55,461 bases of DNA. Source: a virus. Its lineage: Duplodnaviria > Caudoviricetes. This document shows positions 1 through 55,461 of the stretch, piece by piece. A model generated the notes under the pieces. The model did no database searches. It was not told the origin of the DNA and saw only the letters and a list, made by a program, of their open reading frames with translations. Within the stretch, counting starts at the first letter, position 1. Every line of letters begins with the position of its first letter. Location of the stretch: the IMG/VR virus record IMGVR_UViG_3300031653_000002, positions 1 through 55,461 of that record, one strand, 5' to 3'. Both the position numbers and the translations under genes were made by a program.

Positions 1-605
1 CAATCTTCCCCGACTTAGACCCCGTGGACTTCAAGAAAAATCATCCAACGAAATATAAACTCGGTAAGACTTTGAACTTCCTCGTATTATTTAGGGGAGG
101 AGCAACGGCTTTTCAAAGTACGGCATTACAGGATGAGGGCATCGAGGTCGAACTCGATTTCTGCTACGACGCCATTAGAAAATGGGACGAGAAACATCAC
201 GTCTATAGAGCATGGCAGGAAAGGATGATTGCATTAGCCGCCGAACAGGGATACATCGAATTACCCACTGGATGGTCGAGAACCTTCGGCATCGGCCACA
301 CAAACGTAGACGCACAGGGAGGCGAAGTATGCAATTTCCTCCACCAATGTCCCTGTGCACAGGTCATGCACTCGATTCAGCAGAAGATTCAATTGGAATT
401 TTTGAGGCGACACCTCCGCAGTAGAATCTGTTTGGAAATCCATGATGCTATTTATATAGATACACACCCTGCGGAGGATGAAATAAGACATGAAATAGCC
501 CACGAAGCCTTGACGCATCCACCCTTATTACCTGTGTTCGAGAACTGGGTAGGTCGGACTATCCCGTGGCAATATGAACGAAAGGAATACGAAAATGAAA
601 TCTGA
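1..605 (+). CDS. DNA polymerase family A, C-terminal part (same gene as 53450..55461)
   Basis: Motif B GKTLNFLVLFRGG, GYIELPTGWSR, NFLHQ, motif C LEIHDAI. Confidence 0.92.
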   Translation, partial: IFPDLDPVDFKKNHPTKYKLGKTLNFLVLFRGGATAFQSTALQDEGIEVELDFCYDAIRKWDEKHHVYRAWQERMIALAAEQGYIELPTGWSRTFGIGHTNVDAQGGEVCNFLHQCPCAQVMHSIQQKIQLEFLRRHLRSRICLEIHDAIYIDTHPAEDEIRHEIAHEALTHPPLLPVFENWVGRTIPWQYERKEYENEI

Positions 606-7377: not shown

Positions 7378-7819
7378 AATTCCGGTTAGTTTGAGTCCAC
7401 ATATAGTAAATGGTAAGCCGAGGGGGTACTATGTGTTGGCAGAACGATTATTTGCCAAAAACAAAAATCCTCATTTAGTGCGGAACCAATTTGTGGGCGT
7501 TGCAAAGTCCTTGGTGATTTCCGTAAGCCATAACTCCACATGGGATACACTATTGGAGATGAGTATTAGTATTCCCCATCTTCCGAGTGCTCCGCAACGT
7601 GCTAACAGGGTATACTGGTTGGATAAGGCTAAGTTATATCCAATCAATATGGGATTTCGTGCGTATGTACCGGGGTCGGTATTGAAACCAGAACCGGATG
7701 CGGAAAAAATAGAAACTATGGGGGAATTCAAACGATTCCAAATGGGGACAACGGATTTGTTTTATCTGGAAATCCCTATCATAACATTAGATATTCTTTT
7801 GGGAAAGGAAAAACTATAA
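7361..7819 (+). CDS. Hypothetical protein
   Basis: Operon packing; RBS present. Confidence 0.6.
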   Translation: MFNPIRIPVSLSPHIVNGKPRGYYVLAERLFAKNKNPHLVRNQFVGVAKSLVISVSHNSTWDTLLEMSISIPHLPSAPQRANRVYWLDKAKLYPINMGFRAYVPGSVLKPEPDAEKIETMGEFKRFQMGTTDLFYLEIPIITLDILLGKEKL

Positions 7820-8487
7820 TGAAAAGACCAAGAAAGTTAAGGTTCAAAAGGGGGGAAGAAGTTAGAATCTGTAAAGAAACTGACTTTGTTGGACCTAAGT
7901 GGAAAGATAATCCATCTATCGATGATCTTATAACAAATACGAAACTTATAAATGGAGGGTATGACTATTGGATAAGAGGGAGAGCTTTTCGAGATACTGA
8001 ACTCGAACCAGTGACAGAATCCTCCGCGAGCGAAAAGGATACGAACCCGAAAGACGCTATCGGAATCAAGAAAGTGCCGTTGTGGTTTATTCCTACGTTG
8101 CCTTTATGTGAAGTTGGGTTGGCATTTATGGAAGGCGGAAGAAAATATGGGGCTTTTAATTGGAGGGTTTCCGGTGTCCGAGCGTCCGTGTATTATGATG
8201 CAATTATGCGACACATGAACGCATGGAAAGAGGGACAAGATATAGACCCGGACAGTGGCATACACCATATATCCAAGGCCATTGCTTGCTTAATGGTTAT
8301 TCGGGATAGTATTGAGATGGGGAATTGGGAGGATGATAGGCCGGTCAAATATCCGGACGGGTTATCCATTTCTATACTGAATGAGAAAGCAGCCGGTATA
8401 ATTGAGAGGTATCCCGATTGTAAGAAACCTTTTACCCAAAATAATACATCTATAGACAGGACGAAACCTGTTCCGGGAGGTTATTAA
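7819..8487 (+). CDS. dATP/dGTP diphosphohydrolase-domain protein (DUF5664-like)
   Basis: NPKDAIGIKK, EGGRKYGAFNWR, AIMRH..AW.EGQDIDPDSGIHH. Confidence 0.85.
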   Translation: MKRPRKLRFKRGEEVRICKETDFVGPKWKDNPSIDDLITNTKLINGGYDYWIRGRAFRDTELEPVTESSASEKDTNPKDAIGIKKVPLWFIPTLPLCEVGLAFMEGGRKYGAFNWRVSGVRASVYYDAIMRHMNAWKEGQDIDPDSGIHHISKAIACLMVIRDSIEMGNWEDDRPVKYPDGLSISILNEKAAGIIERYPDCKKPFTQNNTSIDRTKPVPGGY

Positions 8488-8760
8488 ATGTGGCAAGATA
8501 AGGTAAATGGATTGTTTGAACTCACCGGGGGCATTTTTATCCTGCTTAGTTGTATTAAACTCTATCGGGATAAGAAAGTACGGGGTGTTAGTTTTGTCCA
8601 CGTAAGCTACTTTACTATGTGGGGATACTGGAACATCCATTACTATATGAATCTCGCTCAATGGGTTAGCTTAATAGGTAGCTTATCCGTGACTATAATA
8701 AATACTATATGGTTGGGGATGATGATATATTATATTAGGAAGGAAAGACATGAAAGCTGA
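8488..8760 (+). CDS. Small 3-TM membrane protein, PQ-loop/SemiSWEET-like
   Basis: Three hydrophobic helices with the KLYRDKKVRGVS loop typical of the family; the PQ dipeptide itself is absent. Confidence 0.6.
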   Translation: MWQDKVNGLFELTGGIFILLSCIKLYRDKKVRGVSFVHVSYFTMWGYWNIHYYMNLAQWVSLIGSLSVTIINTIWLGMMIYYIRKERHES

Positions 8761-9331
8761 TATAGTGACATACACCGGGAAGGCATTTAATATTTTCAAG
8801 CCCGACCCGAAGCTAATCTGCATCGAGGATATTGCCCATGCGTTGTCGAATATATGCAGGTATAATGGCCATACCAGAAACTTCTATAGCGTGGCGGAAC
8901 ATTGTGTCCGGGCATCATACCTAACAGTTGGGAAGCCGTTGATTAACCTACTGCATGACTCTGCGGAGGCTTACGTAGGAGATATGGTTTCCCCACACAA
9001 AAGGAATATGTTCTACTTTAATCCTTATCCTGTCAAAAATCCGATTGGGTTGACTCTTTTTGCAGAAACAGAAATGAGAATACTGGATATAATAGGGGTA
9101 GCATTGGGAGTTGATAATCTCTTTGAAAGGACAGAGCACCAAGATGTCCACAAGGCAGATATGATAATGTTTGTTACGGAAATTAGGGATTTGATGCCTG
9201 AATATATTGCTTTTGAACCTTGGGACGGAGGAATTATCGCGGATGCCAAGCGTATAGAGGGATGGGAACCTAAATATGCGGAACACGAATATTTACGAAG
9301 ATATAAGGAATTAAGCCATGAGCCTAAGTAA
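8750..9331 (+). CDS. HD-domain phosphohydrolase (YfbR/5'-deoxynucleotidase-like)
   Basis: DIAHALSNICRYNGH, YSVAEH, LLHDSAEAYVGD, KAD. Confidence 0.88.
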   Translation: MKADIVTYTGKAFNIFKPDPKLICIEDIAHALSNICRYNGHTRNFYSVAEHCVRASYLTVGKPLINLLHDSAEAYVGDMVSPHKRNMFYFNPYPVKNPIGLTLFAETEMRILDIIGVALGVDNLFERTEHQDVHKADMIMFVTEIRDLMPEYIAFEPWDGGIIADAKRIEGWEPKYAEHEYLRRYKELSHEPK

Positions 9332-12280: not shown

Positions 12281-12438
12281 AAAGGCGGATATTGCAGGGA
12301 TTAATGTTGCCGGTGTGGATATTTATTTTTACAGCTATTGGGATCGTGGCTGCGGTAGAATATGCCATTGATGGGGATTGCAGTAGTGCCAAGGAAGAAG
12401 CCCGGAATCTCTTTCACAAAATCAAATCGGGTGCGTAA
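12277..12438 (+). CDS. Small membrane protein (53 aa, not in ORF track)
   Basis: ATGA overlap; one hydrophobic helix. Confidence 0.5.
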   Translation: MKRRILQGLMLPVWIFIFTAIGIVAAVEYAIDGDCSSAKEEARNLFHKIKSGA

Positions 12439-12483
12439 TTTTGTCAATGTGCCCAAGGGTTTGTTATGGGACTATGGAAATAC

Positions 12484-12573
12484 GTCCGATAACATGGGGC
12501 GATAGCCAGGCAGTCCGATAATGTTGCAGGTGTTATAGGACGTTGGGATGCTGGGATGTGGAAAGTCCGATAA
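12484..12573 (+). repeat. Left cluster of GTCCGATAA repeats (3 copies)
   Basis: Copies at 12484, 12513, 12565. Confidence 0.85.
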
Positions 12574-12634
12574 CTCAATCCCCCCTCGAATAGGATTTGA
12601 ATATCGGGTAATCATATTTTTTTCAGTTTTGATT

Positions 12635-12663
12635 ATTATATCATATTAAGGGCGGAATGTAAA
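12635..12663 (-). promoter_or_regulatory. Leftward sigma70-type promoter
   Basis: Minus strand TTTACA-17-TATAAT with extended TG. Confidence 0.65.
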
Positions 12664-12681
12664 GAAATTTTTATTTTTTTC

Positions 12682-12709
12682 TTGCATTTAATTTTTTTTG
12701 TGTTATAAT
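12682..12709 (+). promoter_or_regulatory. Rightward promoter of the AT-rich early island
   Basis: TTGCAT-16-TATAAT with TG and an AT-rich UP-like tract. Confidence 0.7.
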
Positions 12710-12849
12710 TTGTATAGTTTGGGCAAGCCCCTATGTTTGAGTATTTTTTTGGAGGGCGTCAAAATGACATACTAATGAAAAATTGTAATCGGGCATTGAA
12801 TATATATGTTTAGTGTCCGATTATGGTTTTTTGTTTAGGGGATATTAAA

Positions 12850-13026
12850 ATGAATTACACAATAACATTAGGGGATGTCAAAGTGGATTACACAATAACA
12901 TACAATTCAGACAATAGCATAACAATTAGCACAATACATAATGGCGTTCGACTTCATAAGCAGTATTATGGCTATACAGAGAAGCAAGCCGAAAAACAGT
13001 TTTATATATGGATTGCGTCACAATAA
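12850..13026 (+). CDS. Small hypothetical early protein
   Basis: AGGGGG RBS. Confidence 0.6.
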   Translation: MNYTITLGDVKVDYTITYNSDNSITISTIHNGVRLHKQYYGYTEKQAEKQFYIWIASQ

Positions 13027-13129
13027 TTTTTGTTTAAGGGGTTAAAATGCTATTCGATAATATATCAAATAAAGCAATGGTGCTATTAATCGTATTATCT
13101 TATATGGTTTTGTGTTAGGGGGGTTTATA

Positions 13130-13393
13130 ATGATTTTAAGACAAACATTTAATGAGCCGATTAGTGGTTTTTGGGATGGTGGGGCAAAACGTGTTTTTGA
13201 CTGGTCAATCGACGGTACGCCACAACAAGACAGTAAAGGCAAATTTGTAAAAGTTGGTAGCTGGGCAGCCAATCACTGGTTTCATGTATCGTTGGGCAAA
13301 ACAGATAAACAAACATTGTCTTATGCTAAAACACGTTTGCAAACACTGGCGGATAAAGCTTGTAAAAAATGTATCTTTGAATTTATAGATTAG
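13130..13393 (+). CDS. Small hypothetical early protein
   Basis: AGGGGGG RBS. Confidence 0.65.
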   Translation: MILRQTFNEPISGFWDGGAKRVFDWSIDGTPQQDSKGKFVKVGSWAANHWFHVSLGKTDKQTLSYAKTRLQTLADKACKKCIFEFID

Positions 13394-13537
13394 ATTTGAT
13401 ATGAAAACGCCAAAACGCAAGTATAAATACGAAACCTGGCTGGAATATCCAAAGGCAAGGAAAGTTAAAAAAGAGGATAAATTTGTTAATGAACAAGAAA
13501 AAAGAAATAAGAAATTTGATTTTTAAGGGGGTTTAAT

Positions 13538-14689
13538 GTGGATAATGGGGATCAACAATTAGTATGTTATAATTGTGAAAGCGAAATAGACGGCTGCGAT
13601 TATCAAGAAATAGACAACGAGATATACTGCCAGAGCTGTTACGATGAACTGTTTTGTTGTTGCGATAATTGCAATGAAACAGTATCGATCGACAATACAC
13701 ACTGTATTAATGATGCATGTATTTGTGATGATTGTTTCGATAATAACTATTTTTGTTGCGATGATTGCAGGGAATATAATCATAACGATAGTGCTATTAA
13801 TGCAGCAAACGGGGACACCATTTGTGAAGGATGTTACGGGGAAAATTATTTTACTTGTGAAGGATGTTATGAAGTATATCATGTGGATTGCTCTTGTGAT
13901 GGGTATTGTAATTGTTGTTACAATCAAAACAATAGCGGATGTTTGCACAATTACACGTATAAACCCGATCCAGTTTTTTACGGTAATGAAAAGGATAATT
14001 TATATTTTGGTATTGAACTGGAAATAGAATCACAAAGCAATGATATTGACGATATTGTTGAAAATATGAATGAATATATGTATGCAAAAGAGGATAGCAG
14101 TCTTGACAATGGATTTGAGATTGTATCACACCCTGCAACCTGGGATTGGATCAATAGCAATAAAAATTTGTGGAATGATATTTTAAGGCTTAAAGACGGA
14201 GGATTTAGGAGTTATAATACCGACACTTGTGGTATGCACGTTCATTTGAGTAAAGAAGCATTTTCATCCTTACATCTGTATAAGTTTTTGAAAATGTTTT
14301 ATGAAAATCAAGAGTTTATATTGACAATAAGCAGACGTAGAAAACATAACCTGGATAGATATGCCAGTCTTGAAACAGATGAAAGTATTGTATATAAAGC
14401 AACAAAAAAGTGTAATGGCCATACCAAACGATATACCGCAGTAAACCTTGAAAATAGCGAAACGATAGAAGTAAGGATATTTAGAGGCACATTGTCTGAA
14501 AACGGGTTTTATAGAAATATTGAGTTTTGCAAATCTTTATTTGAATTTACAAAAGAGGCAAGTCTTAAAGATATTACTGTATCTAAATATTGTGATTATG
14601 TAATGGATAACGAAAATACATATCCGAATTTAGCGACGTTCCTAATTGATAAGGAACTAATATCAACATTATTTAGCAGGGGACAATAA
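13538..14689 (+). CDS. Putative amidoligase (COOH-NH2 ligase family) with N-terminal multi-CxxC region
   Basis: FGIELEIE, EDSSL..GFEIVSHP, CGMHVHLS, RYTAVN, TIEVRIFRGT; about ten CxxC pairs at the N-terminus. Confidence 0.82.
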   Translation: MDNGDQQLVCYNCESEIDGCDYQEIDNEIYCQSCYDELFCCCDNCNETVSIDNTHCINDACICDDCFDNNYFCCDDCREYNHNDSAINAANGDTICEGCYGENYFTCEGCYEVYHVDCSCDGYCNCCYNQNNSGCLHNYTYKPDPVFYGNEKDNLYFGIELEIESQSNDIDDIVENMNEYMYAKEDSSLDNGFEIVSHPATWDWINSNKNLWNDILRLKDGGFRSYNTDTCGMHVHLSKEAFSSLHLYKFLKMFYENQEFILTISRRRKHNLDRYASLETDESIVYKATKKCNGHTKRYTAVNLENSETIEVRIFRGTLSENGFYRNIEFCKSLFEFTKEASLKDITVSKYCDYVMDNENTYPNLATFLIDKELISTLFSRGQ

Positions 14690-15418
14690 ATGTGTGTTAT
14701 AATCTATAAACCCAAAAAAGCGTATATAACACGTGAAACACTATCCGAATGTTGGGATGAAAATCCAGACGGCGGAGGTTTCATGTACTCAAAGAATAAT
14801 GTTTTACAAGTACACAAAGGGTTTATGAGTTTTAGAAAATTTTATAAACAATATAGAAAATGTGAAAATGATAATGATAGTAATTTTGTAATCCATTTTC
14901 GTATTGCAACAAGCGGATTGATAGATAGTAACAATTCACATCCGTTTTACGTCAATAAGAGTTTAGGTTTCGTTCACAATGGTATATTAAATTGCGTGGA
15001 TGTGCCCGAAAAAAGCAACAGATCCGATACTGCTATATTCAATGAAACAGTATTAAAAAAATTACCTAAAACTTTTTTGAAACAAAAAGCATATCATATT
15101 ATGCTGGAATCTATTGCCAGACAACAATGCTCTAAATTTGCATTTATGGATAATAAAGGGACTTGTTATATATTCAATGAATGTGCGGGTGTTTGGCAAG
15201 ACGGAATTTGGTTTAGTAATCAGAGGCATAAATGGGACTCGGTATTTCCGTCCAAAAAAACGGAGAAAACAACAACAGTTATTATTGAAAACGAAAAATG
15301 GATCGAATGTTATTGTTGCGGAGACTTTTACCCTGTTTCAGAATGTGTTGGTTTTGGCAATGATTTAATATGTTCGGTGTGTGCAAACGAATGTGAAAAG
15401 GATTACATTTTCAAATAG
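14690..15418 (+). CDS. Class II (Ntn) glutamine amidotransferase with C-terminal Zn-binding tail
   Basis: N-terminal Cys (MCVII), NPDGGG, HFRIAT, HPF, HNG, SDT. Confidence 0.88.
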   Translation: MCVIIYKPKKAYITRETLSECWDENPDGGGFMYSKNNVLQVHKGFMSFRKFYKQYRKCENDNDSNFVIHFRIATSGLIDSNNSHPFYVNKSLGFVHNGILNCVDVPEKSNRSDTAIFNETVLKKLPKTFLKQKAYHIMLESIARQQCSKFAFMDNKGTCYIFNECAGVWQDGIWFSNQRHKWDSVFPSKKTEKTTTVIIENEKWIECYCCGDFYPVSECVGFGNDLICSVCANECEKDYIFK

Positions 15419-15452
15419 GAATAAGAGATTTGATTTTTAAGGGGGTAGTAAA

Positions 15453-15614
15453 ATGAAAAGGTATAGTAAAGAATATGTAAATCAACTGGCTATAAAATAC
15501 TACGAGATGTTTATATCCTGTTTTGGATTACCGAACGCGTTGAAAATACATGCACAACTTGGACGGCTGTTAAGAGTGGAAAAAAATAGACGCAAGGAAT
15601 TAAAAGATAAATAG
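15453..15614 (+). CDS. Small hypothetical protein (53 aa, not in ORF track)
   Basis: Follows the AAGGGGG RBS in the repeat. Confidence 0.55.
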   Translation: MKRYSKEYVNQLAIKYYEMFISCFGLPNALKIHAQLGRLLRVEKNRRKELKDK

Positions 15615-15633
15615 ACACTATCCCTCCTCACTA

Positions 15634-15685
15634 ATGGGGATGCTTTGACCGGATGTCTGGTATCCCCATATTTTGATTATTTTTT
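15634..15685 (+). terminator. Intergenic hairpin, possible terminator or processing site
   Basis: atggggatgc...gtatccccat followed by a T-rich tract. Confidence 0.5.
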
Positions 15686-15698
15686 AAGGATTGATAAA

Positions 15699-15872
15699 AT
15701 GAAAAAATGTAAAACTGTAAAAGAGCAGGTGCAATGGATTAAAAGAGTTTTTAACCGGATAAGGGATAGTTGGAGTATAACATACAACTGGTCTTTTGAA
15801 AAAAGTAGAGCGTATTGTATAGTACTCATCGACAGATTGAATGTTCTCCAAGACATAATAAAGGATAGATAG
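15699..15872 (+). CDS. Small hypothetical protein
   Basis: AAGGA RBS. Confidence 0.55.
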   Translation: MKKCKTVKEQVQWIKRVFNRIRDSWSITYNWSFEKSRAYCIVLIDRLNVLQDIIKDR

Positions 15873-15985
15873 AATGATTGAACCGGATTATATAGACAAT
15901 TTGATATGTGTACTGAATGAACAAGTGGACGAAGGGTATTTGTCAAAAGAGGACGCCCTGGAAATATTGTCGGAGGTTAAAGAAA

Positions 15986-16333
15986 ATGAAGGGTAAATAT
16001 ACTAACCGTTGTATGGAATGTCCCATGTCGGAAAAATGTAAGCAAAAAGAATATATGCGTCCAGATACAGAAGCAGTGCAGGGATATGTCGGCAGTGCCG
16101 ATTTATGGTGTAATGAGCATAAACCAAAAGATGCTGAAAATATGGGATATTATCCCGAAATGGATTCGCCCGCTCATTGTGCTGAATGTGGACGCCCTTT
16201 GCAATGTACCTTAACAGATTATGGCGTCGAATATGTCAAAGAAGCGTTGCAAAATGACGGCTGTTGTTGCGAATTATGGGCGACGTTGTTTGCTGCACAC
16301 TTGGAGGTAAAAGAAAATGATAGTAGTATTTAA
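15986..16333 (+). CDS. Cys-rich hypothetical protein
   Basis: GGAGG RBS; DSPAHCAECGRPL. Confidence 0.65.
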   Translation: MKGKYTNRCMECPMSEKCKQKEYMRPDTEAVQGYVGSADLWCNEHKPKDAENMGYYPEMDSPAHCAECGRPLQCTLTDYGVEYVKEALQNDGCCCELWATLFAAHLEVKENDSSI

Positions 16334-16505
16334 GTCTACGTATAATGATAAAGATGAACATTGTTGGGAAATATTAGGATTATATACTAACATAGAAAAT
16401 ATGCCCAAGGATGTAAGGGATTACCCTAATATGTATAGGATTGAAACCCGACTGGTGGATATAGATTATGTTGACTTTAATATGGGAATTGTGAATAAAT
16501 TTTAG
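16317..16505 (+). CDS. Small hypothetical protein
   Basis: GGAGG RBS. Confidence 0.6.
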   Translation: MIVVFKSTYNDKDEHCWEILGLYTNIENMPKDVRDYPNMYRIETRLVDIDYVDFNMGIVNKF

Positions 16506-16603
16506 AGGTGTATTATGGCTGAATTTGGGATTGTTGTTGTAATCATAGGGATTATTTACTATTGGATATATAAATAGGGTTAAGAAATTGTGGAGGTGTA
16601 AAA

Positions 16604-16909
16604 ATGAAAGTAGAAAATATGAAAAGTCCGAAGACAGGGATGGACATACCTAATCAGTTTATTATTATAGAAGATGTTGAAGAACAATTAGGGCATGAAG
16701 CATATAAACATATATTCTATGCTGAATATTTTCAATCCTACAATTCTATAATAGTTAAGAGATATAAAGGTATAGTTTATCTTGACAAAACGTACTGGAA
16801 TTATTCAAGGACAACGTCAAAATATCGCAATATCTTTTTAGGCGAAACAACAAAGGAAACACAAGCAAAGATTAATAGCGGTGAATATGTATTGACAGAC
16901 TTGAATTAA
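16604..16909 (+). CDS. Conserved-looking small phage early protein
   Basis: GGAGGTG RBS; FQSYNSII...WNYSRTTSKYRNIFLG resembles widespread phage hypothetical proteins. Confidence 0.7.
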   Translation: MKVENMKSPKTGMDIPNQFIIIEDVEEQLGHEAYKHIFYAEYFQSYNSIIVKRYKGIVYLDKTYWNYSRTTSKYRNIFLGETTKETQAKINSGEYVLTDLN

Positions 16910-16925
16910 AGTTGCGGAGGGGATT

Positions 16926-17117
16926 ATGTATTTTAATATGGATCATAAAGAGGGCTTCGAGCAGGTATATCAATGTCAATGCAAAGCGGTATTTCCGGAA
17001 AGCAGAGTAGAAACCATAAAGACACGCTGTGGGGATAGAATTTTGCGATGCCCTGTTTGTGGTAGTCAAGAGATTAGGTGTATTGGGGATAATAGGGATG
17101 CAATACTTGAAAAATGA
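16926..17117 (+). CDS. Small Zn-ribbon protein
   Basis: CQC...CPVCGS; GGAGG RBS. Confidence 0.65.
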   Translation: MYFNMDHKEGFEQVYQCQCKAVFPESRVETIKTRCGDRILRCPVCGSQEIRCIGDNRDAILEK

Positions 17118-17132
17118 ATTGGAGGTTATGAA

Positions 17133-17282
17133 ATGAAAAGGTATAGATTCGCAGTAACACCAAAAGGATGTAATATTGCACAGATAGTAAGTGTACAAGC
17201 AGAGGATAAGTATAAGGCGTTAAGGATGGTAAAAGTGATGTTCAGGGATGCTAAATTTATAGTGCCAGTAAAAGAGAAATGA
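17133..17282 (+). CDS. Small hypothetical protein (49 aa)
   Basis: GGAGG RBS; fills the gap. Confidence 0.5.
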   Translation: MKRYRFAVTPKGCNIAQIVSVQAEDKYKALRMVKVMFRDAKFIVPVKEK

Positions 17283-17291
17283 GGTGAAAAA

Positions 17292-17576
17292 ATGACAGAT
17301 ACTAATAAGCAGACGGAATTACATTTTAGACCAACGGCGTCTGAATGTCAAGGGATAATTTATGCCGATAGCGGCAGGGCTATTGCTATTCTGTATGATA
17401 GGACGGACGGATATGGTGAATTGTTTGCCGCTGCACCGGAATTGTTAGCCATTTGTAAAGATGGGTTAAAGTTTCTTGATAGTTTGCCCGCTACGTCTAA
17501 CACGTTTCAATTAGAAAACAGGACGTATCGGCGGAAACAGCTTGAAAGTATTATTGATAGGGCTGAAAAGAAATAA
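17292..17576 (+). CDS. Hypothetical protein
   Basis: GAGGTG RBS; LFAAAPELL motif common in phage early proteins. Confidence 0.7.
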   Translation: MTDTNKQTELHFRPTASECQGIIYADSGRAIAILYDRTDGYGELFAAAPELLAICKDGLKFLDSLPATSNTFQLENRTYRRKQLESIIDRAEKK

Positions 17577-17585
17577 GGGGATAAA

Positions 17586-17849
17586 ATGAATACGAAACCG
17601 ATTGCCAGAGAAATAACAGAAGATGAATACGAGGAGTATCTTAACGAAGCGTGGGGAATTGTAGATGTTTGTGGATTACCATTCGACGCGGGAACTATTT
17701 TAATGGAACTTGATCCGACGGCTTTTAGATGCGGGCTGGCTGATTATGAAAGCGAGCTTGAACCGATAGAATGGGAATGCGGCGTTTGTGGAACTGTTTT
17801 CGATAACGAAAGTGAAGCCGACGACTGTTGTTGTGATGATAATGAATAA
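17586..17849 (+). CDS. Acidic small protein, candidate DNA mimic
   Basis: EDEYEEYLNE...ELDPTAFRCGLADYE; very D/E rich; C-terminal CGVC...CCC. Confidence 0.65.
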   Translation: MNTKPIAREITEDEYEEYLNEAWGIVDVCGLPFDAGTILMELDPTAFRCGLADYESELEPIEWECGVCGTVFDNESEADDCCCDDNE

Positions 17850-17874
17850 AGGGTAGAATAAAAGAGGTGAAAAA

Positions 17875-18129
17875 ATGAGTAAAGAAATTCAACTTGTTAT
17901 TAAAAAAGAGGATATATCTAATATTCCAGACTCAAAACAAATTAAAAATATTATCATTACCAAGTTGGTGAACGGGTATATTTATGATCGCCCAAAAAAG
18001 GATAGATTTATCCGATGCACAAGTTTTAGATTGCCCGATCCTATAGTAGATAAATTAGAGGAAATAAGTAAAAGTAATAAAATAGGGATAAGCAAACTAA
18101 TCCGGCACATGATAGGATTTGATTATTAA
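17875..18129 (+). CDS. Ribbon-helix-helix (CopG/Arc-like) DNA-binding protein
   Basis: TSFRLPDPIVDKLEEISKSNKIGISKLIRHMI. Confidence 0.7.
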   Translation: MSKEIQLVIKKEDISNIPDSKQIKNIIITKLVNGYIYDRPKKDRFIRCTSFRLPDPIVDKLEEISKSNKIGISKLIRHMIGFDY

Positions 18130-18959: not shown

Positions 18960-20318
18960 CTATGGGAGATAATCTCTTGCCTCTGCCCCGGACTTAAATT
19001 TAAGCCCATTGTAAACATAATACCTACTATCCCTACCGCCCATTCTCCGCTTCGTCGCCTTCGGGAACTGTCTTGCTACTTCCTTCCCGAATGTCTTGCT
19101 TGACATCACCATATACCCGTTATCCCGCCCCCACTTTTTATAGGTATCATATACCGTCTTGGTCCTTACCCCAAAGTGGTACGATTCATCCCACTCATAG
19201 CTCTCCGCGAGAAACATAGCCGCAGGGTTCGATTCCTCCTTATACGCTTCCCACAGCTTCTGACTGGCATCGGCTATCACAAACCTGCGATTAGCTTTCA
19301 AATCCTTCAATCCCTCAATAGCCCAGTTCAATATCCCCGGCAACTCCTCAATAAGCTTATTATCCAAATAAGGATCAACAATACTCGTATCTACCCTATT
19401 AAAAGGCACAACTACCAATCTCCTCCACGTACCCATGCTCTTATCGGTAAAACTGGGGAAATCATTCGACAAAATCAACAGCTTCGCCGTAGCCTCCGCG
19501 GTGAATCCATGCCCCCACTTCCTCTCATAATCAACGCCATCCTTACCCGTCCAAGCCTTAATTATAGCCTCAACCTGCGGAGTCAATTCCTGCTCGGCAT
19601 CTCCGGCCACATTCAATTTCTTCCCATACGTCATATACAACGCAAATTTATCGACGAACCTCCGCAGGGGCACATCGCTACAATTCTCTTTTCCGAGCAT
19701 AGCCTTCATTACCCTGGCAAACGTACTCTTTCCCGTAGCGGCTTCTCCCTTGAGTAGCAGGAAAGACTCATACTCCTGCGTAGGAATCAACAGGTATCCC
19801 GCCCATTGCTGCAACGTCCGTCGCAACTGAGCATCCTCCATCGTAACCTCATCCACGAATTTCATCCACTTGGGACACTCTGCGGAGGGATCGTACCCAT
19901 AGGGCATTTTATTAAGGGCAAAGAAGTCCGGGGTATTCTTTTGTATTTTGGTCTCTCCATTATCTTCAAACGTCACAATCGATTTATTCGTTACAATCGA
20001 ATTCTGAGGCTCGTTGTTGTCCCTAAACCACGTATCCGGCAATCTCTCACTCACGACATTGGATAATGCCTTCAAATTAAGCATGACATTCTCTATCAGG
20101 CTGGTCGAGCACTCCACCGATAATCCCGCAATATATCTAACCAATAGGGCTTTAAGGTCATCTTTCCCCCTCTTTCGGAATATCCCATCATCCCAGAAGT
20201 AGAAATCCTCACGCCAATATATCATAGACCTCTTACGGTCGTCTCCCCAGTCTATATGTCCAATTTCCATATAGAAAGAGTATGCAATCTCCGCCGGACT
20301 TGGTTTCCTCTCAGCCAT
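18960..20318 (-). CDS. D5/P4-family SF3 helicase (D5_N + ATPase + winged helix), no N-terminal primase domain
   Basis: YDPSAECPKWMKF, LQQWAGY, GEAATGKST, LSNDFP, WRRL, LPGILNWAIEG; start placed at MAERK after an RBS. Confidence 0.9.
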   Translation of the reverse strand: MAERKPSPAEIAYSFYMEIGHIDWGDDRKRSMIYWREDFYFWDDGIFRKRGKDDLKALLVRYIAGLSVECSTSLIENVMLNLKALSNVVSERLPDTWFRDNNEPQNSIVTNKSIVTFEDNGETKIQKNTPDFFALNKMPYGYDPSAECPKWMKFVDEVTMEDAQLRRTLQQWAGYLLIPTQEYESFLLLKGEAATGKSTFARVMKAMLGKENCSDVPLRRFVDKFALYMTYGKKLNVAGDAEQELTPQVEAIIKAWTGKDGVDYERKWGHGFTAEATAKLLILSNDFPSFTDKSMGTWRRLVVVPFNRVDTSIVDPYLDNKLIEELPGILNWAIEGLKDLKANRRFVIADASQKLWEAYKEESNPAAMFLAESYEWDESYHFGVRTKTVYDTYKKWGRDNGYMVMSSKTFGKEVARQFPKATKRRMGGRDSRYYVYNGLKFKSGAEARDYLP

Positions 20319-20454
20319 TAGTTCTTTCCTCTTGTTCCGCAATCATTGTTTTAATAAAGCAGCGGGGGGCATAGAAAGATGAATTGGGAATGATTGCCAC
20401 CCCGCCGCACGGTTTTACGTTTTGGAATATTACAGTATTCATCTTTCTATATAC

Positions 20455-48713: not shown

Positions 48714-51700
48714 GTGCCGGAATCCTATGCCAACCTAAAAGGATATTCCCCAGATGAGGACTCTCAATTCGGGATTTCATCCACAAATTTTCCAATAACA
48801 TTCTACGACCGCCCATCTACAATGTTAGCTAATCTTCTACGGGGGGACGTAGATGGAATGACGAGAGCTATGCTTTCCCCAGACACCTTAACCCCCACCC
48901 AGGTAAAAAATGTCACGGATATGCTTACAAAGGGGAAGAAACCAAGTCCAGTTATGAAAACTATCCTGGATGTGGCCACTAATCCTTTGGTAATAATAGG
49001 TCTCATTATGAGTCTAAAATATCCAATGGGGTCTTCAAAAGTTCTTCTTGATATTAGAAAAGGATTATTACCAAAGTCAGCCGCTTTTGGTAAACTAACT
49101 GGTGGTATGCACGGTGCATTAATGAAACTGGCTACCGTCCCGGAAGCGTTTGAAACCTTATTTGGTATAACAAGAGAAACAGAAAAATACATGACTAAAT
49201 ATGGGTCTATGGCGGATGATATATTCAAGAGAGCCTCCGCAGGTAAAGCCGTTAGTAAATGGGACAGTTATCTTGTCGCGGCTCGATTAGACGGTTTACA
49301 TAAGCCGGGTCACTATATGGTGAAGGCTTTACAGAATGAGCCTGAATATATTGCTTTCATGGGCGGTAAGGATGTCCCCATAGCAGCTAATATTCAAAAT
49401 GCTATGGACTCCAGATTGATTAGTTTATCCGATAAATTAAAAGGATGGTATAAAGAGATTCGGGGGACAATCACATCTAATGAAAAGATGATGGAAAATG
49501 TTAATAAGGCTTTAGAGAAAAAAGGATGGAAGGCCGGTAAGGATATAGATGATTATTGGCCTCATAGAGGGGGATATAGCAAGTACCAAAAAACTAAAAT
49601 CAGGGCTATGAATAAGGATCAATACCATAAATTTGTTAAAAAAGATTTCAGGGATAAAGTCGGCAGGGAAGAAATAGACCGCTTGGGGGGTATGTTCCCA
49701 GAGGAAAATGCTCTTAGGGCATTAGAGGAAACCGGGGCAATAAAACCTGGATTCATGGATAATGTAATAAGACCGATTATGAATCGATGGGCGACCAGTG
49801 CATCTGTGGAGGCTGGTAAGATATGGGATGATGTTGTAAAGCTCAACCTCGATGAGGTAGCTCAACGCAGGGAGTTTACAAATAGGATGACCGAATACTT
49901 CAAACGCGGAGCCGGTAAGCATATTAACTTCTTGGGCCGTGTTGGTTCCGAAAAGACTGCAAGGGAAACTCTTGACGCAATGGCCATGTCACTACAAGAT
50001 GCCGGTGTAAAAGGAGGGACTGCTGTTCGGGATGAATTATTTGAAATAGGAAAAGTCTTATCCGCTCCTCCTGAATATTCAATGAATGTTTGGGAAACAA
50101 CACAGGGGTACTTAAATTCTGTTGCGAAGGATTACGCATGGCACGGCACAGGATTGGGGAATAAAATGGGAACTATAATAGATACTCCGGGCATCTTTAG
50201 ACATGCTCCTCATTTAGAATCCTACCTGGTGGACGGATTGCTTCCCCATATCCGGGGGTATAATAGTTACGCCCAAATGCAAAAGGTTATGAATGACTCT
50301 ACCTATAAATCCAAAATACTTAATTGGGTTAAAAGTCATCCTATGGTTGAACAGACTTTGGGGAAGAACCATAAAGAAGCTCTTGTGGATTGGTTATCAA
50401 AACCGGGAACATTGTCGTCACAAAGTATAGGTGGACAAGTGGCAAATTGGTTCCACCTCTCAACTCTTGGGCTTAATATGTCGGCGACCTCCGCAAACTC
50501 AATGCAGACTTTTATTACTACTATCAATCAAGTTGGTCCGAGAGGAATCTGGCGAGGATTAAAGGGCTACGCCGGGGAGCCTGGATTAATACAACGTGCG
50601 GAAAAATACATGGGACTTGTAGCTAAAGGGGCAAGTAAGCCAGAAGCATGGAAACAAGCCTTCCCGGAATTCATAGAAGAAATGGGGGAATGGAGTAAAA
50701 CTACTGAGCGATTACTTTCTGGGGATGTGGCACAATCTGGATTGTTAAAAATGTTTAAGGATAAGGGCGTATGGGAAAAAGTTAAAGGTGCAATGATGCT
50801 CCCCTTTAGTACCGCCGAGGCAGGAAACCAATTGCTATCCTTTTACTCTGGACGGTATCACCATCTCTACCAGAACGCGGGCAGAGTGGCTACGGAGGGA
50901 GCAAAGCTATCTGCGGAGGCTAATAAAGTCGGGGGGTCGTTATCATTATTGACTCAATTTGCCGGTGGTCCATTGGGGATACCGAGTGGGATTATGAATA
51001 TGAATCCCATGTGGCGACAGTATATGCACTTCCCCATGAGGTATTTGGCATATCTTCATGGGTCGTTAAGGATGGGCATTGATCCGAGCAAGATGGACTG
51101 GGGAACAATTGGACGTGCATTGGCGGGGTCTACGGCTATGTATATAGCAGGAAGAAATATGTTGGGTATGGATTTGAGCAGGGGACTTATGGTCGGGGCA
51201 TTACCCCTACCGGGATATGAGAAGGCTCCATTTTATCCATTCCCATTTGTACCTCCTGTAGCAGGAATAATGGGGGAACTCGGCAGGGCTGCATTGACAG
51301 GAGAGCCAAGACAGCTTAGTTCAGTGGGGGCAATGATGGTTCCGGGCGGCATAGCCCTGCAACGAGCATATAGAAGTATGTCCCCTAAGTATGCAGATTA
51401 TGAAAATCCAACACAAGAAGGACGAATACCTTTATATAATAGAGACAAGGCTTTAGTAGGTACTTTATCTCCTATGGAATTAACACTTAGGGCTGTTGGA
51501 CTGAGACCAATGGGGGTGACATCGGAACAAGGTGCGGCGAAATGGATACTATCGCAACGCGACAGGATAAGGAAATATCGGAGAGAATATATTCAGGCAT
51601 TATTTGAAAATGATACCCAGAAAGCAGAAAAAATAAATCAAGAATTCCAAAAAGTATACCCGGAGTTAGGAGAATTACAGGTTAAGAAAACAGATATAAC

Positions 51701-51875
51701 TGCCCTTGAAAACCGACGAGAGATGTCACGTATACATCGTATAACCCGTGGTATATCAAAGAGTTATAGGCCAATATTTGAACAGGTTATAGGCACGGCA
51801 ACTCTATCGAGATTATCAGAAGATATTGAGATGGGCGGAGCCGGGGCACTTGAAAATTATTTTCCAAATCAATAA
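48714..51875 (+). CDS. Large internal virion/ejection protein
   Basis: 1053 aa helical protein, last gene of the virion block; AAGGAG RBS with GTG start. Confidence 0.7.
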   Translation: MPESYANLKGYSPDEDSQFGISSTNFPITFYDRPSTMLANLLRGDVDGMTRAMLSPDTLTPTQVKNVTDMLTKGKKPSPVMKTILDVATNPLVIIGLIMSLKYPMGSSKVLLDIRKGLLPKSAAFGKLTGGMHGALMKLATVPEAFETLFGITRETEKYMTKYGSMADDIFKRASAGKAVSKWDSYLVAARLDGLHKPGHYMVKALQNEPEYIAFMGGKDVPIAANIQNAMDSRLISLSDKLKGWYKEIRGTITSNEKMMENVNKALEKKGWKAGKDIDDYWPHRGGYSKYQKTKIRAMNKDQYHKFVKKDFRDKVGREEIDRLGGMFPEENALRALEETGAIKPGFMDNVIRPIMNRWATSASVEAGKIWDDVVKLNLDEVAQRREFTNRMTEYFKRGAGKHINFLGRVGSEKTARETLDAMAMSLQDAGVKGGTAVRDELFEIGKVLSAPPEYSMNVWETTQGYLNSVAKDYAWHGTGLGNKMGTIIDTPGIFRHAPHLESYLVDGLLPHIRGYNSYAQMQKVMNDSTYKSKILNWVKSHPMVEQTLGKNHKEALVDWLSKPGTLSSQSIGGQVANWFHLSTLGLNMSATSANSMQTFITTINQVGPRGIWRGLKGYAGEPGLIQRAEKYMGLVAKGASKPEAWKQAFPEFIEEMGEWSKTTERLLSGDVAQSGLLKMFKDKGVWEKVKGAMMLPFSTAEAGNQLLSFYSGRYHHLYQNAGRVATEGAKLSAEANKVGGSLSLLTQFAGGPLGIPSGIMNMNPMWRQYMHFPMRYLAYLHGSLRMGIDPSKMDWGTIGRALAGSTAMYIAGRNMLGMDLSRGLMVGALPLPGYEKAPFYPFPFVPPVAGIMGELGRAALTGEPRQLSSVGAMMVPGGIALQRAYRSMSPKYADYENPTQEGRIPLYNRDKALVGTLSPMELTLRAVGLRPMGVTSEQGAAKWILSQRDRIRKYRREYIQALFENDTQKAEKINQEFQKVYPELGELQVKKTDITALENRREMSRIHRITRGISKSYRPIFEQVIGTATLSRLSEDIEMGGAGALENYFPNQ

Positions 51876-52555: not shown

Positions 52556-53449
52556 ATGCAAAGAATAATGACCAAACATGCTTATATAAATAAAAGACTC
52601 ACATCCAGTAGTTTACACCTTATAGAAGTTGCTAATGAAATAATTGATGAATATAGCACAGAGGGGTATGATTTAACCTTGAGACAGTTGTATTATCAGT
52701 TCGTCGCAAGAGATATTATCTCCAATACAGAAAAGTCATATAAAAGATTGGGAGGAGTAATAAACGATGCTCGATTGGTAGGACTGATAGATTGGGAAGT
52801 TATAATAGATAGGACACGCTATCTTCGCAAAAATTCCCACTGGGATTCCCCCAGAGATATTATAGAAGCATGTGCTAATCAATTCCAATTAGATGTCCGG
52901 TCAACACAAAAAAATTATATCGAGGTATGGATAGAGAAGGATGCTCTGATTGGAATAGTAGAAAATGTGTGTTCAGATTTGGATGTTCCTTGCTTTTCCT
53001 GTCGGGGATACATAAGCCAGAGTGCCATGTGGCGTGCCGCACGGCGACATCTGGAAAAGGAAGCGTGCGGGGATAAAAATACCTATATTCTCCATCTTGG
53101 AGACCATGACCCAAGTGGAATAGATATGACAAGGGATATAGAAGACCGCATGTCTTTGTTCGGAAGCAATGTCGCAGTAAGAAGATTAGCATTAAATATG
53201 GAGCAAATAGATGAATTAAGTCCCCCGCCTAACCCTGCAAAGTTTACAGATAGTAGATATGCACGTTATATATCCCAATATGGGCATCAATCATGGGAAT
53301 TAGACGCCCTTGAGCCATCTTACATAGATGAATTAGTAACAACGGAAATTCAAAAATTAACCAACCAAAAAAAATATAAGGAACAGCTTAGGCTACAGAA
53401 AGAACATCGAAGGACTATTATGAAAATCACCAACGAGATGTGGGAATAA
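52556..53449 (+). CDS. Topoisomerase VI-A/Spo11-like TOPRIM protein
   Basis: LTLRQLYY (winged-helix Tyr), EVWIEKDAL, RGY.S, LGDHDPSG (DxD), WELDAL. Confidence 0.8.
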   Translation: MQRIMTKHAYINKRLTSSSLHLIEVANEIIDEYSTEGYDLTLRQLYYQFVARDIISNTEKSYKRLGGVINDARLVGLIDWEVIIDRTRYLRKNSHWDSPRDIIEACANQFQLDVRSTQKNYIEVWIEKDALIGIVENVCSDLDVPCFSCRGYISQSAMWRAARRHLEKEACGDKNTYILHLGDHDPSGIDMTRDIEDRMSLFGSNVAVRRLALNMEQIDELSPPPNPAKFTDSRYARYISQYGHQSWELDALEPSYIDELVTTEIQKLTNQKKYKEQLRLQKEHRRTIMKITNEMWE

Positions 53450-55461
53450 ATGATTGAATTCGAGAGACATTCTGATTGTACCCTGTGTTCCCTGCATGAA
53501 TCGGCTAAGAACCCCGGTATACCTACGAGACCTTTCTACCCTATTTTAGAAATAAATACTGATAGGGCGATATTGTTCGTAGGTCAATCCCCCGGATACA
53601 ATGAGGATAACAAGGGACAATCTTTTATTGGATATACGGGGAAGCTCTTGGAGTCTTTTTGTTTGGCATCTGATTTGGAATCTTATGCCGATATTTATTT
53701 TTCAAATTCATGCAGATGTAAACCTCCGCAGGGTGCCGATGAATCTCAATCCTGTATGCGAAGCTGTAGGCCGTATCTACAGGAGGATTTGGATAAACTG
53801 TACGAGCACTATAAGGAGGTTATCATCTTCAACCTCGGTGCAAAGGCCGTCTACAGTACGATGCACATAACATCTCTCAATGAAGCATTAAAGAAACAGG
53901 CACAGAAGACAGAGGTATTCACTCAGAAGCCGAGAGTATTTTCTACTTTCCATCCTGCCATACTTCACTCTACTCGGAAGCCGGGATTGGTACGTGCAGT
54001 AGAAGCCCATTTCTCTTTGGTCTTACGATATTTACAGGGACAATTTATCCCGAACGAATTGAAGATAGAGCCGGAACTCGGAGTGGATGTGCCGGATACG
54101 TTGCCCGATGAGGTCGCAGTTGATATAGAAACCTACGGGATATTATCCGGATGGGAGCAGACTGTATTTCATCCGATTAAATCCAAGATGATAGACAAAG
54201 TTGATTATAAGTATCAAGTGGTTACAGTTAGTTTTGCGTGGGAGGACAACAATGGTAAAATCAGAACCGCGGTCTATATCTATAACTGGAAAAAGCACAG
54301 GAAAAAAATCGTTTTGTGGTTTAAGCGAATATCCGAGCAGAAAAAGACCTGTCTCGGACAAAATATTAAATTCGATTTGCTCTACTTGTACTTATCCGGG
54401 AACCCTGAACTGTCCTATTGGATTGATCCCCGTAGATTAAGACTTGATGATACTCTGATACTAAGTTTTCTATTGTATGAACAACAACCGGAGAAGGGAC
54501 TCAAGGAGCTATCGACTTTATTCGGCATAACAGATTATTCCGGATTACGTGTCACTGGGAAATCTGGTACTGCTAAGTCCAATAGGGATAAGGACTTACA
54601 TTACTACAACTGCCTCGATGCAGCGGCGACACTTGTACTCGCTAAAGAGCTGCGGAGGAGAATTGAGGAGAGATTCGGGAAGAATTCTTATAAACTAAGT
54701 GACACTTGTGCATGGATGCGGAATACTGTATTGTGGGATACTTTCTTTTTGGAAAAAAATGGAAGTTCCTTTAACGTTAAGAAGTTAGTAAAATATCATA
54801 ACGAAGAAAAGAGAAAGTGTAATGACCTCCTCGAATCTGCATGGGACAACTTCGGCATTAAGTTAGCCGGTAAAAAGTCCGATGCCCCGTTGAGACAATT
54901 GATGTTGGATTGTGTTGACGAGGCTGGACTTATGGGAGACCCCAGAGTTGAGTGGTCTAAAAAAACAGGTAAAATTTCTATAGGAGTCGAAAATGTCAAC
55001 CTCATCAAATCAATACTTAGCGTCGGTAGAAATGCTGACATCATTTCCAATTTTCAAGAGTATAAAGAGCGGTCTAAGATTATCTCCACGTATACGGGAC
55101 CTTTACTCAAAAAGCCCCGACAAGGAATCGTCACTCGATGTCATGGTGGAAGAATTGGCACTGTTTTCCCTAATTGGTATCCTGTACCCCTCTATGCGGA
55201 TAGAGGAGGCGGGCGAGACGACAAAGCCGGAGGACAAATCCAAGGAAGATTCTCCTGCAAAAAGCCAGCCCGACAAACCGAACCTCCAAGAATCCGAAGA
55301 TGTCTCTGCTCAAGATGGCCAAACGGAAAAGTCGTAGAGTATGACATTAACCAAGACCACATAAGGATGGGGGCATTGTTATCAGGAGACCCCCATCTAC
55401 TTGGGGCATATCAAGAGGCGGGAATAAGCGTCCATGCCCAGACCGCATTGACAATCTTCCC
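53450..55461 (+). CDS. DNA polymerase family A with N-terminal family-4-like uracil-DNA glycosylase and 3'-5' exonuclease domains (5' part; continues at 1..605, about 868 aa in total)
   Basis: Translated by hand, open to the window end. UDG: CTLC, LFVGQSPGYNED..GQSFIG, CRCKPP, TFHPA. Exonuclease: VDIET, GQNIKFD, YNCLD. Polymerase: QGRFSC, motif A EYDINQDHIR. Confidence 0.92.
   Translation, partial: MIEFERHSDCTLCSLHESAKNPGIPTRPFYPILEINTDRAILFVGQSPGYNEDNKGQSFIGYTGKLLESFCLASDLESYADIYFSNSCRCKPPQGADESQSCMRSCRPYLQEDLDKLYEHYKEVIIFNLGAKAVYSTMHITSLNEALKKQAQKTEVFTQKPRVFSTFHPAILHSTRKPGLVRAVEAHFSLVLRYLQGQFIPNELKIEPELGVDVPDTLPDEVAVDIETYGILSGWEQTVFHPIKSKMIDKVDYKYQVVTVSFAWEDNNGKIRTAVYIYNWKKHRKKIVLWFKRISEQKKTCLGQNIKFDLLYLYLSGNPELSYWIDPRRLRLDDTLILSFLLYEQQPEKGLKELSTLFGITDYSGLRVTGKSGTAKSNRDKDLHYYNCLDAAATLVLAKELRRRIEERFGKNSYKLSDTCAWMRNTVLWDTFFLEKNGSSFNVKKLVKYHNEEKRKCNDLLESAWDNFGIKLAGKKSDAPLRQLMLDCVDEAGLMGDPRVEWSKKTGKISIGVENVNLIKSILSVGRNADIISNFQEYKERSKIISTYTGPLLKKPRQGIVTRCHGGRIGTVFPNWYPVPLYADRGGGRDDKAGGQIQGRFSCKKPARQTEPPRIRRCLCSRWPNGKVVEYDINQDHIRMGALLSGDPHLLGAYQEAGISVHAQTALTIF
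55452..55461 (+). repeat. Terminal 10-nt overlap with nt 1-10 (circular assembly junction)
   Basis: caatcttccc at both ends; merging the ends keeps the PolA frame (...ALTIFP-DLDPVDFKK...). Confidence 0.9.

Follow-up and report, generated by a model that had tools for sequence, protein, structure and literature searches.

The DNA analyzed here is the whole virus record IMGVR_UViG_3300031653_000002 (55,461 nt; completeness rating 100%), referred to below as the window. It encodes a polymerase of 868 amino acids (aa) in which a uracil-DNA glycosylase (UDG)-like domain is fused to a proofreading DNA polymerase A (UDG-PolA). The nucleotide-binding pocket of this enzyme departs from that of canonical DNA polymerase I (Pol I): the steric-gate Glu of motif A is replaced by His, and the Arg and Tyr of the O-helix are replaced by Tyr and Phe. 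These residues, together with three others, were present in all 91 members of one clade of homologues. As judged from the alignments, the changes are coordinated and conserved, and are held by selection. We favor, with a probability of roughly 55%, the reading that the protein is a single replicative polymerase whose pocket has undergone a selected, quantitative retuning and which would otherwise be a normal DNA polymerase.

The polymerase gene occupies 53450-55461 and continues at 11-605. The open reading frame (ORF) at 53450..55459 (+; 670 aa) has no stop before the 3′ end of the window, and a second frame, already open where the window starts, ends with a stop codon at 605. Positions 1-10 are the same as 55452-55461, a 10-base overlap of the record ends. 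The two halves of the Pfam PolA profile PF00476 are consecutive: 55025-55459 matched profile positions 70-195 (35.0 bits) and 54-512 matched 207-357 (29.8 bits). The end overlap and the consecutive profile halves indicate one 868-aa gene that wraps around the record, with the frame open throughout. The genome is circular or circularly permuted, and the polymerase gene is split by the record ends. The source database lists the record as linear despite the overlap.

The 5′ part of the gene (53450..55461, + strand; aa 1-670) encodes the UDG-like domain, the 3′-5′ exonuclease, the thumb, and the palm up to motif A, with PF03167 (UDG superfamily) matched at aa 36-176 (E 1.4e-16) and PF00476 at aa 524-670. 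The 3′ part (3..605, + strand, ORF open at its 5′ end; aa 669-868) encodes the fingers with motif B, then motif 6, motif C, and the stop, and contains the second half of the PolA profile. A preliminary description of this DNA had treated the polymerase as lying within 53450-55461; its placing of motif A at 55343-55366 was correct, but the interval does not include motif B (54-98) or motif C (438-449). No match to PolB or Prim-Pol was obtained in the window genome, in which UDG-PolA was the single polymerase found. It was likewise the single polymerase gene found across ~20 near-complete genomes from the clade and its relatives.

Replaced pocket residues and their distribution

The protein was aligned to Taq, Klenow, and Aquifex Pol I with HMMER, using a profile hidden Markov model (HMM) of 110 full-length homologues. 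This profile of the homologues matched Pol I chains with E values from 3e-33 to 1e-21. In motif A (DINQDHIR, 55343..55366, + strand; aa 632-639), catalytic D632 is kept, D636 stands in place of Ile709, and H637 stands in place of the gate Glu710 (E. coli numbering). In motif B, the O-helix (YKLGKTLNFLVLFRG, 54..98, + strand; aa 686-700), Y686 replaces Arg754 and F698 replaces Tyr766, and K690 (Klenow Lys758) and F694 (Phe762) are kept. The segment aligned to NLQNIP reads ARQTEP (55268..55285, + strand); its residues R608 and E611 are clade-diagnostic. Motif C (IHDA, 438..449, + strand; aa 814-817) keeps H815 and D816 and has A817 for Glu. The His aligned to Klenow His734 is also kept (H662, conserved in the clade alignment). 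Exonuclease motif I (DIET, 54122..54133, + strand; D225 and E227) falls in columns conserved in both clades, and 3′ of it the Exo II residues N305..D309 (NxxFD) and Exo III residues Y386..D390 (YxxxD) are intact.

The preliminary description had arrived at the gate, O-helix, and NLQNIP replacements by hand alignment. Each was recovered in the HMM alignment to Pol I, in which the gate position holds His637 and not Glu, and the alignment columns agreed in showing intact exonuclease motifs and no change at the catalytic Asps or at Lys and Phe of the O-helix. Changes that it had not reported are the loss of the motif C Glu, the conversion of TGR to QGR, and the replacement of the UDG catalytic Glu by Gln46. 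The motif C Glu is replaced by Ala or Ser across the whole family, and likewise in N4 gp39, in the cultured Serratia phage Opt-155, and in the metagenome-derived MW202455. TGR reads QGR, rarely HxR, across the metagenomic family (window 55241-55249); Opt-155 and MW202455 keep TGR. The available text of the 2023 PolA classification mentions just one cluster with a changed TGR Thr (PMC10201439).

In Pol I-type enzymes, the steric-gate Glu and three O-helix residues (Arg, Lys, and Tyr) are textbook fixed points. In the accessible text of the 2023 reclassification, these four are among the highly conserved, labelled motif positions, and the crucial catalytic residues are described as strictly conserved across its 19 clusters (PMC10201439). 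E. coli E710 is cited as the steric gate by Missoury et al. 2026, the accessible part of which mentions no gate replacement (PMC13697223). The motif A Glu bars the 2′-OH, and the nearby B4 Tyr also aids discrimination between dNTPs and NTPs (PMC10201439, PMC13697223). For the Bst E658A variant, the accessible literature describes disturbed selectivity and rate.

Homologues were collected by a word-indexed search, which gave 193 sequences. Among the best 120 of these, almost all were ~865 aa long, and many lay on 52-57 kb contigs. After 10 shorter sequences were dropped, the window protein and 110 homologues of at least 790 aa made up a 111-sequence alignment. All six residues R608, E611, D636, H637, Y686, and F698 were found in 91/91 clade members. 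These sequences are representatives of at least 91 sequence clusters (90% identity clustering), and their pairwise identity ranges from 42 to 90% (median 57%). D632, D816, K690, and F694 were conserved in 89-91 of the 91. Among the 19 non-clade members with a gate Glu, the O-helix Arg was present in 17 and the Tyr in 15, and all 19 had Ile, Val, or Met before the Glu; non-clade residues were A, V, H, or S at position 608 and F or Y at position 611. One further sequence (P0094) was intermediate, with Ser-His, Arg, and Phe. The preliminary description had asked whether homologues share the His/Phe pair; 91/91 clade members do. Its argument that the gene is not in decay also held, with the derived residues fixed together in 91/91 members and the catalytic apparatus otherwise intact.

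Positions counted as clade-diagnostic when conservation within the 91 reached 93% or more and no more than 12% was shared with the 19. Of the 20 positions so defined, 12 fell within five polymerase motif segments: 596, 608, 611, 616, and 619 (TGR/NIP), 636 and 637 (motif A), 686 (motif B), 785 and 786 beside the motif 6 minor-groove Gln, and two that follow motif C (819 and 824). When conserved positions alone are counted, 12/42 were diagnostic inside the motifs vs 8/197 outside, a 9-fold enrichment (Fisher p 8.9e-6; the motif segments were drawn after the alignment had been viewed, and the p-value may be somewhat flattering).

The derived set was narrowly distributed in wider samples. In 67 viral loci it was present in 22 rows only; two loci (L019 and L024) were intermediate, and 43 rows were canonical at the gate. 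A profile search over 1.84 billion protein representatives gave 48015 matches at E <= 0.001 and 1746 at E <= 1e-30. Among the best 150 of these 1746, only P0074 and the fragment P0225 had the set, and nearly all others keep the Glu; one fragment (P0261) gave no alignment at the motifs.

Phylogenetic analysis was performed with the trait columns removed. The clade was monophyletic, with a support of 100 in FastTree (69 rows) and 99 in IQ-TREE (29 rows). L019 and L024, which have the His gate and keep both the O-helix Arg and the UDG Glu, grouped with the canonical L026 and L029 (support 99). When L019 was forced into the clade under the LG+G4 model, delta lnL (log likelihood) was 34.4 and the approximately unbiased test gave p-AU 0.033, a marginal rejection for a group that had been picked after the tree was seen. 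This is only a hint that the His gate may have arisen twice. Single changes are evidently tolerated in the family background; fixation of the complete set occurred in one lineage.

The UDG-like domain of the fusion is altered as well. The N-terminal 210 aa of the protein aligned (phmmer) to the solved family-4 UDGs 4zbx, 1l9g/1vk2, and 1ui0. UDG motif A reads GQSPG (53582..53596, + strand) where family 4 has GE[AG]PG, which puts Gln46 (codon 53585-53587) at the place of the catalytic Glu. The motif B His168 (HPA; 53951..53953, + strand) and the Fe-S cysteines C10, C13, C90, and C106 are all kept. The catalytic Glu was present in 0/91 clade members (Gln in 82, Lys in 3, others in 4, gap in 2) vs 10/19 non-clade members. 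In a distant branch (L048-L062 plus L068; e.g. L055:10536-12617), the polymerase ORF is only ~694 aa long and the UDG-like part lies in a separate upstream frame or is absent; the fusion there has been split or lost.

A structure prediction, one of the follow-ups proposed in the preliminary description, was obtained for homologue P0007, a stand-in for the joined protein of the window (64% identical over the 670-aa 5′ part). The AlphaFold2 model, based on a 110-sequence alignment, had a pLDDT of 90.9 and a pTM of 0.88. Foldseek gave Aquifex, Klenow, and Bst Pol I as the best matches (E 1e-25 to 1e-22; TMt 0.75-0.82). A Pol I large-fragment fold, with the exonuclease plus thumb, palm, and fingers, is thus predicted with confidence.

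Explanations for the altered pocket

In Pol I, the O-helix Arg and Lys grip the triphosphate, and hydrophilic changes of the Taq Ile that precedes the gate loosen sugar and base selection. We propose that a single rebuilding of the pocket took place at the root of one clade of uncultured ~55-kb phages and that selection then froze the result. The enzyme would still copy DNA from dNTPs. His637 may take over the role of the Glu side chain by filling the space under C2′, and Phe698 would have followed because the Glu-Tyr hydrogen bond is gone. R608, E611, and D636 could form a charged network that replaces hydrophobic packing, and this network may offset the charge lost with the O-helix Arg. The net effect would be a quantitative shift in the grip on sugar and triphosphate (Km, sugar discrimination, analogue tolerance), with no new chemistry.

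The clade is without the UDG catalytic Glu and carries a deoxyribonucleoside 5′-monophosphate (dNMP) phosphatase, and for this reason altered nucleotide handling may be connected with such a shift. In the window, this HD-motif phosphatase is encoded at 8750..9331 (+ strand; phrog_318 E 1.5e-51; HD motif seen in the translation). ORFs were clustered over 19 whole genomes (the window and 18 related genomes: 8 clade, 1 intermediate, and 10 others), and a wider set of 35 related genomes was also searched. The phosphatase was present in 8/8 clade genomes, 0/1 intermediate, and 1/10 others in the former; in the latter it was found in 8/9 clade genomes (the one lacking it is 79% complete) vs 2/26 others (one a partial match). 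The clustering also gave three small clade-specific ORFs of 157, 94, and 90 aa, without annotation or PHROG match, in 7, 7, and 6 of the 8 clade genomes, respectively.

Several observations weigh against selected retuning. Tyr replaces the O-helix Arg beside a gate Glu in L025 and L040; the UDG Glu is lost with a canonical pocket in L021, L023, and L047; and the His gate goes with an intact UDG motif in L019 and L024. Among non-clade sequences, the pocket can thus change without loss of the UDG Glu, and the UDG Glu can be lost without a change in the pocket. The associations with UDG Glu loss and with the phosphatase come from a single clade, and so amount to one evolutionary event with no independent replicates. 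The roles given to Klenow R754, I709, and Y766 are only partly backed by the accessible literature.

Compensated neutral drift is an unlikely alternative. Here the family background would tolerate loss of the Glu and Arg, and one workable combination would have been fixed with substrate selection and kinetics not meaningfully changed. The single components found elsewhere fit this view: the Tyr-for-Arg and His-gate loci named above, Tyr for Arg in the protein representatives P0121, P0132, P0135, and P0231, and Phe for Tyr, which arose many times in the family. So does the placing of L019 outside the clade, which hints that the gate position can change more than once, and the whole family is already off canon at motif C (Ala or Ser) and at TGR (QGR). 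Drift accounts less well for six positions that are invariant down to 42% identity, for the enrichment of diagnostic changes in the catalytic motifs, and for three replacements (Glu by His, Ile by Asp, and Arg by Tyr) that, given the observed codons, each require at least two base changes. Invariance, however, is a constraint on the new state and does not imply a different function.

Adaptation to a non-canonical nucleotide such as uracil, made at the dNTP level, appears distinctly unlikely. In this case the UDG would have been disarmed, which would spare the DNA of the phage itself, and the dNMP phosphatase would drain a canonical nucleotide; the distributions of the UDG Glu and of the phosphatase agree with this, and the window also has a MazG-like pyrophosphohydrolase and an amidoligase/amidotransferase pair. 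SPO1/SP15-type UDG-PolA phages have modified thymidine according to the accessible text of two papers (PMC10201439, PMC13697223), and the polymerase of Opt-155 and MW202455 lies beside thymidylate synthase-like, dCMP deaminase, and dUTPase genes. The genome searches counted against this reading. ThyA (PF00303), ThyX (PF02511), and dUTPase were each found in 0/35 related genomes, with the positive controls detected, and PurA/PurZ (PF00709) gave 0 matches in the window genome. The MazG-like gene was present in 4/9 clade genomes vs 6/26 others, and the amidoligase pair was in no cluster common to at least three of the 19 whole genomes. In addition, ordinary metagenome sequencing yielded these genomes, so library polymerases can presumably copy the DNA. 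Modifications are borne on the base edge, but the polymerase residues that changed are oriented toward the sugar and triphosphate, which also counts against a non-canonical nucleotide. Thymidine modification as a clade-wide explanation was rejected on the ThyA, ThyX, and dUTPase results. A Z-genome was rejected as well: the window is without PurA/PurZ, and PF18909 is scattered among the relatives. A modified base thus has no genomic support.

A decidedly improbable reading is that this natural and widespread lineage gave up the gate Glu as well as the triphosphate-binding O-helix Arg since its substrates are selected by different rules, for instance by the admission of ribo- or 2′-modified nucleotides, or of nucleotides with an altered phosphate or sugar supplied by unannotated clade-specific genes. 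If this reading were true, it would mean phage DNA with a non-standard backbone or composition, and the disarmed UDG domain would be a reader and not a glycosylase.

Relaxed sugar selection, by which ribonucleoside triphosphates (rNTPs) are admitted or chains are self-started in replacement of a primase, is very improbable. The pocket has lost the gate Glu as well as the Tyr that partners it, and the adjacent Ile is now a polar Asp. The use of rNTPs increases when Taq Ile614, the equivalent of that Ile, is replaced by hydrophilic residues and when the Glu is lost, which counts for this reading. No Toprim_2 or other Toprim domain, DnaG zinc ribbon, archaeo-eukaryotic primase (AEP) small subunit, or Prim-Pol was found in the window. 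However, Prim-Pol and Toprim_2 were found in 0/35 genomes, relatives with a canonical pocket included; the lack of a primase is therefore family-wide, does not single out the clade, and is uninformative for self-priming, and the many unannotated ORFs could hide a primase. A bulky His can presumably still block the 2′-OH, and the enzyme retains proofreading along with every DNA-polymerase motif.

A decaying or inactive polymerase gene can practically be dismissed: counterparts of Klenow E710, R754, and E883, usually essential or near-invariant, are all replaced, but the 868-codon frame is open, the replacements are invariant in 91 sequences, the catalytic Asps and exonuclease motifs are intact, the model is confident, and the gene is the single polymerase found in ~20 near-complete genomes.

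The clade comprises at least 91 sequence clusters, and in each the enzyme apparently serves a complete phage genome as its only replicase; nature evidently has a second workable solution for the Pol I pocket. The clade and its intermediates (L019- and L025-type) offer natural variants for polymerase enzymology and for the engineering of polymerases that write xeno nucleic acid (XNA) or RNA. Metagenomic PolA surveys that demand canonical residues would probably miss the clade. Uracil excision was recently described as coupled to replication, and the link between the pocket change and the loss of the UDG catalytic residue in one fused enzyme is relevant to that coupling.

Genes accompanying the polymerase

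Downstream of the polymerase, the replication module contains a PD-(D/E)XK exonuclease gene (3389-4414, + strand), an ORF without assignment (4514-5167, + strand), and a gene for a Sak4-like AAA_24 protein (5179-6093, + strand). The order of polymerase, exonuclease, and Sak4-like gene resembles that of N4, Opt-155, and MW202455. An ERCC4-like nuclease ORF is also located downstream of the polymerase. A 157-aa ORF at 774-1247 showed a weak match to the N-terminal Ia domain only of NAD-dependent DNA ligase, and is too short for a ligase. Directly upstream of the polymerase, a 297-aa ORF (52556-53449) matched phrog_6247 ('DNA topoisomerase', E 3e-114) and gave no Pfam match; this ORF was present in just 2/67 related loci (L033 and L030).

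A MazG-like dATP/dGTP pyrophosphohydrolase is encoded at 7819..8487 (+ strand; PF18909 E 1.2e-22; phrog_801). PF18909 was found in 10/35 genomes (4/9 clade, two of them below the family cut-off, and 6/26 others). The gene was rejected as a partner of the pocket change, being present in only part of the clade and also outside it. An Amidoligase_2 gene followed by a class-II glutamine amidotransferase-like gene lies at 13538-15418, within a stretch (12001-18000) whose GC content is 33-37% vs 40-45% elsewhere. The pair looks like an acquired island, and its absence from the shared gene clusters removed it as a candidate partner of the pocket.

The largest minus-strand ORF called (18960-20342) has an inverted GC skew and encodes a D5-like superfamily 3 (SF3) helicase with D5_N, DUF5906, Pox_D5, and RFX DNA-binding domains and no recognisable primase domain. 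In its place, relatives have other helicase modules, either AAA_25 or an unannotated 423-aa protein. A cluster of 423-aa proteins (c024) was present in 1/8 clade vs 8/10 other genomes; it gave no Pfam or PHROG match, and Atlas pointed only weakly to SF3 helicases, through 10% of one cluster's members. Loss of c024 as a link to the pocket was rejected, since it is probably a helicase-module swap (D5-like or AAA_25 in the clade). A 1053-aa protein (48714-51875) occurred in 19/19 compared genomes, with no Pfam or PHROG match and an Atlas lead to 'large polyvalent protein' clusters. There was no clue to the host: a scan of genome contigs gave only cellular Pol I (22-29% identity), and the window has no tRNAs.

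Comparison with known polymerases

Bacterial Pol I large fragments (Klenow, Bst, KlenTaq, and Aquifex 8jrb) share 15-19% identity with the protein and have in common with it the fold, the catalytic Asps, the O-helix Lys and Phe, and the exonuclease motifs. Unlike them, the window protein has an additional UDG-like domain, and its gate Glu, the preceding Ile, the O-helix Arg and Tyr, the motif C Glu, and the TGR Thr are replaced.

DpoZ (clusters #18 and #19) has Phe at B4 (Klenow Tyr766), as here, a feature that the available text calls unique to DpoZ; by that description DpoZ differs only at B4, which sets it apart from the clade (PMC10201439). The window has a MazZ-type PF18909 gene like DpoZ phages, but it is without PurZ/PurA, and PF18909 is not clade-specific. 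To our knowledge, DpoZ has no UDG domain.

The literature on steric gates, family A His, and UDG-polymerase fusions, so far as its text was accessible, contained no clade with a His gate and Tyr for Arg, though the supplementary alignments of two key papers might show one. Mutations E710H, E615H, and E480H were not found among the matches listed.

The best deposited phage matches were Opt-155 and MW202455, which are 23-25% identical across the UDG and exonuclease parts (E 1e-18 to 7e-9); the Pseudomonas phage PMBT14 group also matched. Opt-155 and MW202455 have the polymerase, PD-(D/E)XK nuclease, and AAA protein in the same order as here, and HD[AS] in motif C. They are canonical in motif A (SQ[MI]ELR), motif B (R..K..NFG..YG), and TGR. 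The thymidylate synthase-like, dCMP deaminase, and dUTPase genes that adjoin their polymerase are absent here.

According to the available text of two papers, the known UDG-PolA fusions are N4-like (cluster #17), SPO1-like, and SP15-like, the last with an active UDG (E53/H178) and in phages with modified thymidine (PMC10201439, PMC13697223). In SPO1- and SP15-like polymerases (YerA41, phiLo), a UDG is fused to a replicative, proofreading PolA, as here (PMC13697223). SP15-like proteins are described as longer than 1100 aa and as having a C-terminal domain in addition to two large inserts, whereas the protein here has 868 aa and the P0007 model has no extra domains. Their UDG is active with its Glu, whereas here Gln46 takes that place and the His is kept. 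SPO1- and SP15-type phages also make 5-hydroxymethyldeoxyuridine triphosphate (5hmdUTP) via a thymidylate synthase homologue (PMC13697223, available text), a family found in 0/35 genomes here.

The N4-like fusion, of which N4 gp39 is the type, is likewise an 800-900 aa fusion of a family-4 UDG-like domain, exonuclease, and PolA; its UDG catalytic residues are described as not conserved (PMC10201439, available text). N4 gp39 has HDA in motif C, the same as here; unlike here, it keeps the gate Glu and the O-helix Arg and Tyr. Comparison of N4 gp39 with the family by hhalign gave a probability of 94% (E 1.4e-7) over the polymerase domain only, a distant relationship, and tblastn of deposited records at E 1e-5 gave no N4-like phage. 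In cluster #17 the His-bearing UDG hairpin is described as deleted (PMC10201439), whereas here the catalytic Glu is lost (Gln46) but the motif B His and all four Fe-S cysteines are kept. An N4-size virion RNA polymerase was not present, the largest ORF of the window being 1176 aa. UDG-PolA fusions are thus already known, and the clade with co-replaced pocket residues is a variant of these.

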